From a virus (lineage: Duplodnaviria > Caudoviricetes): 39,518 bases of DNA. The translations under genes were made by a program, and so were the position numbers. The stretch spans positions 1-39,518 of IMG/VR virus record IMGVR_UViG_3300032212_000060. One strand, 5' to 3'. The notes under the pieces were generated by a model, which was given only the letters and a program-made list of their open reading frames with translations, had not been told where the DNA came from and did no database searches. This document shows positions 28,979 through 32,671 of the stretch, piece by piece. The stretch's first letter is position 1. Each line of letters begins with the position of its first letter.

Positions 28979-29135
28979 ACTTTAAATCCTTCTTAGTATC
29001 TTTAACTACTTTTTTGATACAGAAGTCTGTCATTACTGTGTACCCTCTACTGTGGGTGCGGTAGCTAACGTGGGGTTGATCCGAGAATAACAGTCTGGCC
29101 TGTCGTCTGATCTGTTTAACTAGGGATTGTCTCAT
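28944..29135 (-). CDS. Small basic hypothetical protein
   Basis: 63 aa, Arg/Lys-rich, overlapping both neighbours. Confidence 0.6.
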   Translation of the reverse strand: MRQSLVKQIRRQARLLFSDQPHVSYRTHSRGYTVMTDFCIKKVVKDTKKDLKYANSRKGLHVL

Positions 29136-29233
29136 TTAAATAAACCTTTTGTTATCTGAACTAGTAATGTAGCTATCATTGACAGTGTGACGGTTGCCAT
29201 CAGTATGCCTACTATGAGGTATTCGCTTGTCAT
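29132..29233 (-). CDS. 33-aa single-pass membrane peptide (not in the ORF track)
   Basis: MTSEYLIVGILMATVTLSMIATLLVQITKGLFK; AAGGG upstream; its TGA overlaps the next ATG (ATGA). Confidence 0.65.
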   Translation of the reverse strand: MTSEYLIVGILMATVTLSMIATLLVQITKGLFK

Positions 29234-29253
29234 ATCATGCCCTTAAAAATAGG

Positions 29254-29306
29254 TGAGAGATGCACAGACGGGTCTCTCAACTCCGCTGCTAGGATTGCAC
29301 TAACAG
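29254..29306 (-). ncRNA. Predicted double-pseudoknot RNA, element A
   Basis: CUGUUAG-UGCA-AUC-CUAGCAG-CGG-AGU-UGAGAGA-C-CCG-UCUG-UGCA-UCUCUCA; four complementary pairs; the U-G wobble favours the - strand. Confidence 0.6.
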
Positions 29307-29356
29307 TTACAGCACCCCGCTCTGTGCTAGGGAGTACGCCGCTCTATAAAGTAGTT

Positions 29357-29415
29357 GGCAGGTTGTGCGATCTGCGGTGCCCTGCCTTGCACTTGTTCAC
29401 GCTCCGCACTTAGCG
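29357..29415 (-). ncRNA. Predicted double-pseudoknot RNA, element B
   Basis: CGCU-AA-GUGCG-G-AGCG-UGAACAA-GUGC-AA-GGCAGG-GCAC-CGCAGAU-CGCAC-AA-CCUGCC. Confidence 0.65.
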
Positions 29416-29485
29416 CTCTTTAGTTATCCCAAATCATAAAGAGAAAGCATTGTTAACGACAGTATGTTTGTCAGCTGGGAGGCTA
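29416..29485 (-). ncRNA. Predicted kissing-loop RNA, element C
   Basis: UAGC/GCUG hairpin whose loop UCCCA is complementary to UGGGA in the loop of the CUCUUUA/UAAAGAG hairpin. Confidence 0.45.
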
Positions 29486-29489
29486 GAAA

Positions 29490-29558
29490 GGTGAGGAGGT
29501 GGGACTCGAACCCACAAACCAGCCAATGCTGTGCTGTACCAATTCGCACTACTCCTCG
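29490..29558 (-). ncRNA. tRNA-like RNA lacking an anticodon loop
   Basis: GAGGAG/CUCCUC acceptor stem, UA, D arm GUGC-GAAUUGGUACA-GCAC, short AGC-AUUG-GCU hairpin, T arm GUGGG-UUCGAGU-CCCAC, 3' ACC. Confidence 0.8.
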
Positions 29559-29566
29559 TAAAAAGA

Positions 29567-29630
29567 GCTAGCTTTGTCACCCCTTCAATCCCGCTAGCGT
29601 AGGATTCTCATAACCGTTGGTGACTACGTT
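29567..29630 (-). ncRNA. Predicted double-pseudoknot RNA, element D
   Basis: AACGU-A-GUCACC-A-ACGGUU-AUGAG-AAUCC-UAC-GCUAGC-G-GGAUU-GAAGG-GGUGAC-AAA-GCUAGC, then a U-run. Confidence 0.65.
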
Positions 29631-29752
29631 CCTCCAACTCTTAGTACCTATGACTAGGTAGGTGTTCAGGAGGACAATGCCTAGCATCAAGGGGCTAGGC
29701 TAACCTGTCACAGCTTCATCGTCAACCGAATCTATTATGTAACTGTCTACCA

Positions 29753-29767
29753 GTTACACAGTGTAAC
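29753..29767. promoter_or_regulatory. 15-bp palindromic site (copy 1 of 5)
   Basis: GTTACACAGTGTAAC at the stop of the SSB-like gene; extra half-site TGTAAC at ~29738. Confidence 0.8.
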
Positions 29768-30286
29768 TTACTCTTCCCAGTTGACAGCAGCTTTGATCTG
29801 CTTCTGTCGGTACTCGTTGAGGTTATCGAAGACTGCATCTTCACCATTCGAGAACTCATAGAAGTAAGTATCAATATCGGGTTCTGGAATGTCGATGCCT
29901 GCCATAGGCTTAGTAACATTGCTGATGTTGTCTCTCATCACACCCTTCTTGTCTTCGGCATGGGAGATCTCAAGCATACAAGGTAGTCCGACCAACTGTG
30001 CTAGGCTAGTAGCATCTGGTTTGATTGCCTTGACAAGCTTCATCAAGTTACCATCAGGGTTAGATGTCTGGTTAAGAGGCCAACCCCACTTCATCTTCTG
30101 TTTCTCAACACCATCTATCTCGATGGTCTCATTAGGTAGTACGAACTCAAACACTACCTGTTCCTTGTCCCCGTAAGGTGTCTTCTGTACACCTAGCTCT
30201 ATCACTCGTGCTACTCGTGCAGCATGTAGACCCTCAGGGATTAAGTCAAACTCTTTAGTCTCTACTACTTGTGGATTAAAAGTCAA
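29768..30286 (-). CDS. Putative single-stranded DNA-binding protein
   Basis: F.LIPEG.H.ARV..VIELG.Q N-terminus, L..LVG.PC.L.I.H, acidic/aromatic end; replication-module context. Confidence 0.6.
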   Translation of the reverse strand: MTFNPQVVETKEFDLIPEGLHAARVARVIELGVQKTPYGDKEQVVFEFVLPNETIEIDGVEKQKMKWGWPLNQTSNPDGNLMKLVKAIKPDATSLAQLVGLPCMLEISHAEDKKGVMRDNISNVTKPMAGIDIPEPDIDTYFYEFSNGEDAVFDNLNEYRQKQIKAAVNWEE

Positions 30287-30833
30287 GGAACATCCCTCCT
30301 ACTGTGTTGCCTGTACCTGTTGCACTGCGAACACTAGTAGCAAGATTGTCATGCGCTCGTCGTGCTTTGTTAGTGCTATCGTACAGGTCTCTTAACTTAC
30401 CGATCTCTGTAAGATGGTCTTTGTTAAGGACAATATTTCTTTTATCCTTACTGTAACCGCCAACATAGGCAGGGTTACGGGAGATACTAAAGTCTCCGTA
30501 CTGGATTACGTAGATGTATTGTCCACACTTAGAGATTAATCCGTTGTATTTTAGTTGCTCAAGAATTTCATCAGCTTTCTCAACTGCACTATCTTCAACG
30601 TACTTTAATTCTGGTAGGTGTTTTGATTCAGTCATATGTTCTGTCTCTGTCTTTGGTGTTTGAAAGTATTGCTCTATGTATTCAGGGTTAGGTACGTACC
30701 TGTTTTCTGTCGGTACGTTTTGCCTATCTAGTATGTCTCTTGCCTCTTCTAAAGCCTTAAGAGTTGTCTTCGCATCGTCTAAAGCCCTAAAAGCTAACTG
30801 TGCATCAGTGAGTGTCGTACCATGTGTTGCCAA
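30276..30833 (-). CDS. Hypothetical protein with a capsid-like N-terminal motif
   Basis: TTG start with AAGGAG RBS and its own promoter motif directly upstream. Confidence 0.7.
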   Translation of the reverse strand: MATHGTTLTDAQLAFRALDDAKTTLKALEEARDILDRQNVPTENRYVPNPEYIEQYFQTPKTETEHMTESKHLPELKYVEDSAVEKADEILEQLKYNGLISKCGQYIYVIQYGDFSISRNPAYVGGYSKDKRNIVLNKDHLTEIGKLRDLYDSTNKARRAHDNLATSVRSATGTGNTVGGMFLDF

Positions 30834-32211
30834 TCTCTGACTCTCCTTTAATTATACAACGAGAACCTAAGATAGTTCCCGCTTGTTCTATACTATCTTC
30901 TAGTATCTTAGCAACACGTTCAGCATGTTCTTCCTTGACTATGAGTTGGTACTCATCGTGCTGTACTGTTGCAAACTTAGCGTCAAGCTTCTCAGCTTTG
31001 ATAGTATCGTAAGCTACAACCATAGCCCACTTCATTAGCACTGCTTCAAAGTTCTGTAGCAAGTACACAAGTAGCATGTGCTCTGATGTAACGTATATCT
31101 TTCTCTTGTCTATGCCTAGTATGTAGCCATGCTTCTTCCAGAACTTCTTCAAGTCCTTGAGTAAGGCAACCAGTGCATCCAGACCTGCCTCGAACTTGGC
31201 TCTAATAGTCTCAGCCTCAGGGACAGAGCATCCAATCTGGCTAGCAGTCTTGTTTGCTCCTGCTCCAAAGAGGTAACCATAGAATACATTCTTTGCATGG
31301 CTTCTAGAAACACCTGCTCTCCTACCGTTGAGGCTGTGAAGGTCTGTCCCATTAGCTTTAACGCCATTAAGTAATGCCTCTTGAAACTCCATATCTCCCA
31401 TGTAGTGCGACAATGCACGTACCTGACACTGGTCAGCATCTGCACCTACCACTACATATCCCTTCGGTGCTCTGAACACCTTACGCATAACCTTCCACAG
31501 TGCCCCTTCCTTAGGAGCAGGGACATTAACTATCTTACTGTGGGTCATTCTTGCGGTAGCCGCTCCCAACGTATTGACCACTGAGGGTACAGTACCGTCA
31601 CTCCTGCAATCTCTGAGGAAGCCCTTGATCTGATTACGTTTATGCGTGATCTGCCTACGGTATATGATGAGCGACGCTGCTGGCCCCAAGCTTTTAAGAT
31701 CTTCGTAATCTTCTTCCGTAAGTTTAGGCGATGTTTTAATCTTGTTACCGTAGTAATCTTTGATCTCTTTACCGCTCTTATCTTTCTTATAGTTGTATGT
31801 CTTTGGTTTCCATCCATTGTTCAGCAACCATTTGTTTACCTGTTGAACAGAATCCAAGTTAATAGGAACGAATTCAACACGGTTAAATGCCCCATCAACA
31901 GTAAGGTTCGGTTCGGGTTCATCCCCCAACCAGTCAGAAACTTGTTTAGTATAATCTCCATTTAACTTAAATACCTTTGTAATAGTTGTCTTGTCTTGCT
32001 TAGGTTTGGGTGGTATCAGTGGCAGGATAGCCTCATCAACCCAGTCAACTCTCTCTTGTAGCTCAGTGATTTGCTTATAACATTCCTGTCTGTCAAGAGG
32101 GAAGCCATTGTTTTCCATTTCAATGGCTATGTCTTGTACACGTTGCTCAAGGTATAAAGCTGAAACCAGATCCAAGTTGTTTGTAGTAATCGGGTAGACA
32201 GGCTGCTTCAC
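30805..32211 (-). CDS. DNA polymerase family A, polymerase domain
   Basis: T.RMTHS..VNVP, motif A VGADADQCQVR, motif B R..AK..FYGYLFGAG, motif C HDE. Confidence 0.93.
   Translation of the reverse strand: MKQPVYPITTNNLDLVSALYLEQRVQDIAIEMENNGFPLDRQECYKQITELQERVDWVDEAILPLIPPKPKQDKTTITKVFKLNGDYTKQVSDWLGDEPEPNLTVDGAFNRVEFVPINLDSVQQVNKWLLNNGWKPKTYNYKKDKSGKEIKDYYGNKIKTSPKLTEEDYEDLKSLGPAASLIIYRRQITHKRNQIKGFLRDCRSDGTVPSVVNTLGAATARMTHSKIVNVPAPKEGALWKVMRKVFRAPKGYVVVGADADQCQVRALSHYMGDMEFQEALLNGVKANGTDLHSLNGRRAGVSRSHAKNVFYGYLFGAGANKTASQIGCSVPEAETIRAKFEAGLDALVALLKDLKKFWKKHGYILGIDKRKIYVTSEHMLLVYLLQNFEAVLMKWAMVVAYDTIKAEKLDAKFATVQHDEYQLIVKEEHAERVAKILEDSIEQAGTILGSRCIIKGESEIGNTWYDTH
30851..30879 (-). promoter_or_regulatory. 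Putative ECF-sigma promoter inside the polymerase 3' end
   Basis: GGAACT-N13-GTTGTATAAT immediately before an AAGGAG RBS. Confidence 0.8.
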
Positions 32212-32671
32212 GTTCTAATTCCTCAAGCACTAATAGGTTTATCTCTGCGTCTTCAACACAACGGTGGCCCATAGCCTCACTGTACTGTGACCAGTCCGTA
32301 TGGTCAGGCTTCCATCTGCCTAGCCTACGTGCCCATGCCTCTATGCTGTGAGTTGCCTTGCCTTTGTAGTCAGGTGGTGGTGGGCGCTTAGGGTTAAGCA
32401 TACGGCTGAACACTAGGGTATCAACCACTACCTGATGAGAGGCAGGCTCCCAATCATAGAGCTTCTTGAGCAGTGGCAGGTCATGCTTCTTGATGTTGTG
32501 TCCTACCAGTACGTCAGCAAGAGATAGGTGTGCTAGTCCTTTAACTACATCAGTGGGAGGGAAGAGAGTAGCAGTGCCGCTCGATCCCTTGTCCACTGTT
32601 GCAATACACCACAGTGTGTCAGCTACATCTAGGAAGCCGTTACTCTCTGTATCGAATACTCTGACTAGCAT
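32147..32671 (-). CDS. 3'-5' proofreading exonuclease domain of PolA (separate ORF)
   Basis: ExoI FDTESNG, ExoII GHNI..HD, HSIEAW, ExoIII C.ED. Confidence 0.9.
   Translation of the reverse strand: MLVRVFDTESNGFLDVADTLWCIATVDKGSSGTATLFPPTDVVKGLAHLSLADVLVGHNIKKHDLPLLKKLYDWEPASHQVVVDTLVFSRMLNPKRPPPPDYKGKATHSIEAWARRLGRWKPDHTDWSQYSEAMGHRCVEDAEINLLVLEELEREAACLPDYYKQLGSGFSFIP

Follow-up and report, generated by a model that had tools for sequence, protein, structure and literature searches.

An uncatalogued double-pseudoknot RNA fold predicted in shuffled non-coding arrays of phages

What is held in the 530-nt gap that separates an SSB-like gene from a 33-aa hydrophobic ORF in the replication operon of a 40-kb podovirus? 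The gap lies in the window analysed here, which is the whole of a 39.5-kb virus record (39,518 nt; IMGVR_UViG_3300032212_000060). The virion genes of this record share one strand, opposite those for a primase/helicase, a family A DNA polymerase in split form, a sigma factor and an exonuclease. A preliminary description had proposed that the gap encodes an array of sequence-unrelated small RNAs, termed A to D, that share one double-pseudoknot topology. Our analysis suggests that these pseudoknot units belong to a real, uncatalogued RNA fold family residing in shuffled non-coding arrays of phages, an assignment that we regard as firm for unit D and probable for units A and B.

The polymerases of marine podoviruses are ~33-36% identical to that of the window, and the one record in a collection of cultured phages that contains a relative of the neighbouring gene is classed in the Zobellviridae; hence we refer to the window phage as Zobellviridae-like. 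Its DNA polymerase (30805-32671) is split into an exonuclease ORF of 174 aa and a polymerase ORF of 468 aa, which overlap. Immediately upstream of the gap, on the minus strand, is the gene for a 172-aa SSB-like OB-fold protein (29768-30286), whose structural model (pLDDT 77) recovered PrgE as the best Foldseek match (E 4e-4), along with PriB and SSBs, with modest TM-scores. A locus search with this protein alone returned no matches. A 65% identical relative occurs in L027, a contig of 1 Mb whose title assigns it to the genome bin of an archaeon, and may come from a mis-binned or integrated phage. Downstream of the gap, on the same strand, the 33-aa ORF (29132-29233) is preceded by a U-rich stretch and a Shine-Dalgarno-like site; a Pfam search with it yielded no matches, and similar small ORFs come after the cassette in related phages. 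The 5' part of the gap consists of hairpin modules (29630-29767, minus strand; hairpins at 29760-29736, 29700-29679 and 29674-29630; fold z -3.5), the second of which recurs in L015 with 26 of 28 nt in common. Scans for sigma-70 promoters and terminators gave no signal exceeding that of shuffles.

To describe the units we used the pairing order P1-a-P1'-b-c-b'-a'-c' as a descriptor. Every helix that had been reported for D, B and A is present at the position given for it, and the claim of a single pairing order is upheld by the descriptor and the shuffles. Over the whole window, on both strands, the descriptor found 10 matches, and the top three by number of pairs are D (22), A (21) and B (20), all inside 375 nt. 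In a test that is post hoc for the window, the descriptor having been derived from D, B and A themselves, dinucleotide shuffles of 29245-29760 contained a mean of 0.02 matches, with at least three in 0/3000 and two in 1/3000; the pattern is far commoner in this region than in shuffled sequence. Shuffles of the whole window (n=30) contained 3.7 +/- 1.9 matches, with 0.47 at 20 or more pairs. The unchanged descriptor was also applied out of sample to the stretch past the SSB gene in 13 distinct related phages (2352 nt), where it found three matches (L005, L012 and L016), all with at least 20 pairs; three matches were seen in 0/3000 shuffles of these 2352 nt, and L012 attained the top descriptor score among all loci scanned. 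Throughout the fetched loci, matches with at least 20 pairs numbered four on the sense strand and one on the opposite strand per 48,075 intergenic nt, as against 12 per 866,282 nt of coding sequence, these rates being rough as the loci overlap. The description of the units as sequence-unrelated also stands, the pair scores of D, B and A being equalled by 318, 36 and 32 of 500 shuffles.

Two H-type pseudoknots that interlock, one formed by P1 and a and the other by b and c, provide the best description of the predicted fold. The classic H-type geometry is seen in both: a loop of 1-3 nt spans a helix of 5-7 bp, and most units have 0-2 nt between the stacked helices. When folded with nested pairs only, the units do not surpass shuffles in energy (z -0.3 to 0.5); this is to be expected of a calculation that leaves out pseudoknots, and it likewise provides no support. 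Variants with G-U pairs occur on the sense strand. A relaxed descriptor, tuned post hoc after some units were already known, adds units in L006 (with a 64-nt insert), L015, L045, L116 and L118, which are individually weak, with 0 to 5 of 40 shuffles matching. It missed L119 and the D unit of L118, and gave the D of the window another, upstream partner for helix a. The L045 unit has an AU-rich helix a, whose partner is absent from the intergenic stretch of the near-identical L021; the additional unit of L118 adjoins a tRNA-Met and contains a helix b that is found inverted in L114. The double-pseudoknot units range from 60 to 111 nt and their inserted hairpins from 0 to 64 nt. Five of the 10 curated units end in ACC past helix c, against a background of ~2% per position; these units are not independent, and the ACC may belong to a shared junction.

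Covariation is clearest in unit D (29567-29628, minus strand), in which P1 is formed by 29628-29626/29617-29615, helix a by 29624-29619/29581-29576, helix b by 29606-29601/29592-29587 and helix c by 29598-29593/29572-29567, as delineated by the descriptor and the homologues. The latter come from two Zobellviridae-like relatives (L005 and L016) and from an unrelated group of phages (L114 and L116-L119). A pattern made from the 5' half of D only detected seven loci, two from the L005 phage and five from this other group, and an 18-mer pattern of D retrieved four, of which two are the L005 phage and two are chance matches in coding sequence. With D alone, blastn against 50,697 phage records gave one chance match (E 8). 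In the eight D sequences, which represent four lineages with five of the eight being close kin, 162 of 162 cells pair, partly by construction as the helix boundaries were set by hand, and two-sided changes are found at 14 of 21 positions, including all six of helix c. Even P1, with just 3 bp, shows a two-sided change in L016. Pairs were counted by anchored coordinates, the MAFFT alignment A3 placing helices b and c out of register. When the 3' half, which lies outside the search pattern, was shuffled, the fold was restored in 0/5000 cases for each of the eight sequences, and both chance coding matches to the D pattern fail the pairing test. The covariation of D extends over four lineages. The unpaired linker GUYAUGAG (also given as GUYAUGAG-A) is kept in 8/8 sequences, with 19 invariant columns in all. 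In L005 and L016, D is followed by an ORF rather than a tRNA. Helix c of the window D (29593-29598/29567-29572) is a self-complementary hexamer that could form an intermolecular kissing dimer; this is probably incidental, because helix c of the homologues is not palindromic. We firmly predict, on comparative grounds, that D is a member of an uncatalogued RNA fold family.

Units A and B are probable members of the same fold family, resting on two sequences each, with one homologue apiece. The pairing order originally read in unit A holds, and its extent (29306-29254) was probably mis-cut: the unit redrawn here spans 29254-29337 on the minus strand, with P1 at 29337-29331/29318-29312 and a 7-bp helix a at 29327-29321/29268-29262, and the hairpin previously taken for P1 is an insert (29306-29286). 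Helices b (29285-29283/29271-29269) and c (29279-29273/29260-29254) complete the unit, which ends in ACC and is followed by a U-rich stretch. This redrawing follows from the homologue in L015, which keeps GCACAG/CUGUGC of helix a together with the core of b, and in which c is replaced by another fully paired helix. Unit B (29357-29416, minus strand) comprises P1 29416-29412/29403-29399, a 29409-29405/29369-29365, b 29392-29389/29380-29377 and c 29386-29381/29362-29357. Its single likely homologue, L012, has an identical c and different P1 and a, all of them paired. Sequence pattern searches gave two chance matches out of two for A, and for B one real match out of six, namely the L012 phage, which was known beforehand. 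Segment C (29416-29480, minus strand) is a candidate simple pseudoknot, in which 29480-29475/29432-29427 crosses 29443-29437/29422-29416, with an inserted hairpin. The two pairings initially noted for C therefore survive as a plain two-helix pseudoknot, with the coordinates of our own reading, and its standing as a fourth unit does not, as it has no homologue in the 1.09 Mb of fetched loci. By eye, L011 (3600-3665) and L026 (3606-3665) have a common candidate unit with the same helix order, a 3-bp P1 and a c of 5-7 bp; these candidates passed neither descriptor.

Between D and B lies an element absent from the preliminary description, a tRNA look-alike (29490-29557, minus strand) that has no anticodon arm. 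It scored 28.5 bits with the Rfam tRNA model RF00005 against a cut-off of 29 (E 0.0011), the best score in a scan in which the window had no match at the gathering threshold, and ARAGORN reported neither a tRNA nor a tmRNA at this position. In the look-alike, the acceptor stem is 6 bp long and runs on into ACC, the D stem has 4 bp and the T arm is canonical; just 15 nt separate the D and T stems, where the anticodon and variable arms would lie, and the fold z is -2.4; the T arm equals that of T4 tRNA-Leu at 21/22 and of T5 tRNA-Ser at 22/25 positions. We rejected a functional tRNA, the element having no 5-bp anticodon stem with a 7-nt loop and an acceptor of 6 rather than 7 bp. The stub in place of the anticodon arm (29530-29514) has three complements in 29478-29446 (7, 5 and 6 bp), which could provide an alternative fold with segment C. 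The tRNA look-alikes of L005 and L006 possess an 8-nt AU-rich anticodon loop. In L085 (2070-2144), a tRNA with an abnormal anticodon loop (ARAGORN tRNA-???) is found upstream of an exonuclease relative.

The association of D with tRNA-like elements recurs in the second phage group, where D ends 4 nt ahead of such an element in 5/5 phages. These elements have intact acceptor and T arms and a hypervariable middle; two were scored by Rfam, at 41.3 and 27.9 bits, a third in part, and the rest were recognised by eye. The one annotated member of the group has terminase and portal families different from those of the window phage and a GC content of 35%. The arrays of the group carry further units of the same helix order, and blastn with the L116 array matched T arms only. 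Within 600 nt past D in L114 and L116-L119 (G001-G005) we also observed hypervariable, anticodon-damaged tRNA-like genes and conserved structured elements without an Rfam match. The record G002 (L127 1395-5957; L130 4394-9072) contains two portal/terminase pairs, has a GroEL-like gene, by eye, near the array, and may be chimeric or duplicated.

Comparison of close relatives points to gain and loss of modules. In ~98% identical contigs (flanks) from runs X2 and X3 of one study, 29250-29677 is skipped exactly, so that 29249 is joined to 29678; runs X6 and X7 gave no coverage of the cassette. L015 displays the same empty junction, which implies that this gene-free block of 428 nt is accessory and was probably gained. 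Six of the 13 related intergenic stretches hold a unit, with a different mix of modules each time, and the others lack one. The near-identical strain also differs in the first hairpin of the gap, where it carries 19 additional bases at 29752 and several changes next to them; the hairpin tips vary too. Long AT-rich inverted repeats, resembling RNase III or module-boundary stems, enclose parts of the intergenic regions in L009 (1768-1836), L011 (3597-3966) and L012 (2086-2340). In 80 loci of distant exonuclease relatives no convincing unit was found past the SSB gene. With blastn, the cassette matched the 50,697 phage records only at the T arms of tRNAs and plasmids at a single 22-nt chance match. 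The sequence model R1, run over 65 sources (748,523 nt), recovered training sequences or copies only (among whole records, 1/5).

The notion of a multi-RNA cassette, in which sequence-unrelated units are under selection for one pseudoknot topology, is supported by the covariation, the accessory indel and the recurrence beside tRNAs in the second phage group, and the presence of the tRNA look-alike makes processing more plausible. We tentatively favour, as a possibility falling a little short of even, an accessory, exchangeable non-coding array in the replication operon, whose units would be freed by host tRNA-processing nucleases as end-protected RNAs and would act as decoys for host proteins; the processing part, taken alone, is likelier than the decoy role, which is the weakest link. 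The cassette would be co-transcribed with the SSB operon. Bacterial RNase P gauges the acceptor stem and T arm while pairing to the 3' RCC (PMC10731613), and because the look-alikes retain all three, the enzyme would be expected to cut before them. At the look-alike this cut would leave D with a 3' end that lies 8-9 nt beyond helix c, or 4 nt beyond it in the second group. Endonuclease cuts in the U-rich spacers and 3' trimming, such as open spacers and mature ends in tRNA maturation, would free the other units. With P1 sequestering the 5' end of a unit and helix c its 3' end, exonucleases would be expected to stall. The freed units could then serve as decoys for host proteins recognising tRNA ends or structured RNA, and a constant scaffold with turnover of helix sequences and inserted hairpins is what would be expected of surfaces under host-driven diversifying selection.

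The best-surviving alternative, still rather unlikely in our estimate, is that the units are cis-acting roadblocks akin to the exoribonuclease-resistant xrRNAs, with strand a threaded through a ring latched by c, which would stabilize the downstream tRNA-like RNA or mRNA. The core order a-b-c-b'-a'-c' is the helix order of viral xrRNAs, which have a ring of 15-16 nt, occur in tandem and block RNase J1 (PMC8374639). Flavivirus class 1 and dianthovirus/luteovirus xrRNAs further resemble the units in having a slot for a variable hairpin between a and b, in occurring as tandem copies and in retaining the fold as the sequence diverges, and a unit is often the final element ahead of a U-rich ribosome site or a tRNA. 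The ring from c to c' measures 14 nt in A and 16 nt in both L015 and L012, but 19-23 nt in the other ten rows, including D, B and L006. Moreover, the flavivirus-class architecture was rejected: its P1-P2-P3 three-way junction, into which the 5' end pairs and which has a base triple, is absent here, P2 is missing from D and B, and the 5' end instead closes a separate hairpin stem around strand a. This extra 5' hairpin provides a second H-type pseudoknot, and the units come from a DNA phage rather than a eukaryotic RNA virus. Many Gammaproteobacteria lack a 5'-3' exoribonuclease, which counts against a roadblock.

Less probable is a ribozyme reading, in which D, and perhaps other units, would represent an undescribed self-cleaving class and would process the array much as phage tRNAs are processed by theta ribozymes. 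D is 60-63 nt long, forms two pseudoknots, is phage-borne and adjoins tRNAs, and its 19 invariant columns include the unpaired GUYAUGAG. It also has the four helices of pistol in another order, and non-circular permutations of ribozymes exist (PMC10085705). As in pistol, the P1 loop pairs with a junction strand (helix a 5-7 bp; 6-bp pseudoknot in pistol), two more helices are present and the association is with phages; the strand order differs, though, and pistol was rejected because G40-C41-G42 is absent (a' is followed by AAA, AA, A or GA), as is the 2-nt P3-P2 cleavage junction: in D, helix c runs straight into b', and the end pairs that would need to open covary. Hammerheads in all six permutations were rejected, with the CUGAnGA block absent and GUYAUGAG in its place in 8/8 D sequences, and the stems misfitting the hammerhead blocks (in block S, which runs from a stem III strand over the cleavage nucleotide to a stem I strand, the misfit is that P1' has its partner on the 5' side of strand a and not on the 3' side). 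In HDV-like ribozymes the double pseudoknot is nested, and P2 closes it at the 3' end; no helix of the units starts before b and ends past a', and they have no conserved C before the last strand. Theta ribozymes are likewise small double-pseudoknot RNAs adjoining phage tRNAs, but with this other nesting, the catalytic C of J4/2 and a position 3' of the tRNA rather than 5' as in D. A, B and the L006 unit do not contain the D core. The tRNA-like domain of tmRNA has no D stem and has a G3-U70 alanine identity; the look-alike resembles the TLD-only tmRNA of DS6A in being without an anticodon arm, but its 4-bp D stem and an acceptor devoid of a G-U pair led us to reject this too. The initial statement that the units are not HDV, pistol or tmRNA accordingly holds, each failing a defining feature.

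It is very doubtful that the pseudoknots tune the downstream small ORF as translational operators to which phage proteins bind, in the manner of the T4 gene 32 pseudoknot and its SSB. The neighbouring SSB-like gene and the pseudoknot, U-rich and ribosome-site layout are reminiscent of the gene 32 leader (PMC3014915), but the cassette follows the SSB gene instead of preceding it, a near-identical strain does without it, and D also precedes tRNAs in a phage group without the SSB-operator context. Slightly less probable still is the antitoxin mimicry entertained in the preliminary description, a part of its cassette proposal for which no support was found, whereby the units would be pseudo-ToxI mimics neutralising ToxN-like nucleases. 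Type III antitoxins are H-type pseudoknots, phage TE escapes them by a pseudo-ToxI (PMC5086642), and the cassette is accessory, yet these antitoxins are single H-type pseudoknots, which are cut from arrays of similar tandem repeats and have a cognate toxin. The units are double, 60-111 nt long and sequence-unrelated, with no shared cleavage motif at the two ends and no match to a ToxI family in Rfam, and we rejected ToxI for them. That D and the tRNA look-alike alone are real, and that the pairings of A, B and C are either decayed or due to chance, at a hot spot of recombination, is comparably improbable: A and B have one homologue each, C has none, and the descriptor background is ~4 matches per shuffled window, but A and B outscore every background match in the window, L015 swaps helix c of A for another paired helix, and the B homologue is the highest-scoring of all.

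Returning to the processed, exchangeable array, its closest counterparts are the stable RNAs of unknown function in the tRNA clusters of T4 (species 1 and 2, rnaC and rnaD) and T5 (RNA1, RNA2, RNAI, III and IV, among others). As in those clusters, non-coding modules lie back-to-back beside tRNA or tRNA-like elements, and in rnaC, T5 RNA1 and RNA2 the middle is replaced and a T arm and an acceptor-like stem remain, as in the look-alikes reported here. None of the 10 annotated T4/T5 stable RNAs fits the double-pseudoknot descriptor, their sequence likeness is confined to the T arm, and the present array differs in residing in the replication operon of a 40-kb podovirus. Tymovirus-type tRNA-like structures have a pseudoknotted helix ending in ACC, together with a T-loop and an anticodon hairpin; the stacked b and c helices of the units (9-12 bp) come near the 12 bp of the tRNA acceptor-T arm, but the units have neither T-loop nor anticodon hairpin. 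GOLLD and ROOL are pseudoknot-rich phage RNAs, with ROOL often near tRNA islands (PMC12286853), but they are hundreds of nucleotides long and have no Rfam match here. On the homologous loci, Rfam 15 detected only tRNA and its antisense look-alike family. A literature search, with subscription journals outside it, found no description of this fold, and the D core was not found in six supplement files of PMC10690425, whose further supplements could hold it as an unnamed candidate. Systems of this kind are known; what appears new is the fold, along with its spread across unrelated phages.

More speculatively, and with no greater probability than the roadblock, the double pseudoknot may be a general scaffold for RNA-only counter-defence, in which an acceptor-like helix, often ending in ACC and freed by host tRNA processing along with anticodon-less tRNAs, would soak up host toxins or sensors directed against the 3' ends of tRNAs, and the modules would be exchanged among unrelated phages in the way that small anti-defence genes are. 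The function of the stable RNAs of T4 and T5 has been a puzzle since their discovery, and the locus offers a defined, covariation-supported 60-nt fold together with a natural pair of strains with and without the block. If the units block exonucleases, they would constitute an xrRNA-like device in a DNA phage; if they are decoys, an RNA-only layer would be added to anti-defence; and if D cleaves, it would represent a new ribozyme class. A small fold that guards both RNA ends and tolerates large inserts would, moreover, be a useful scaffold.
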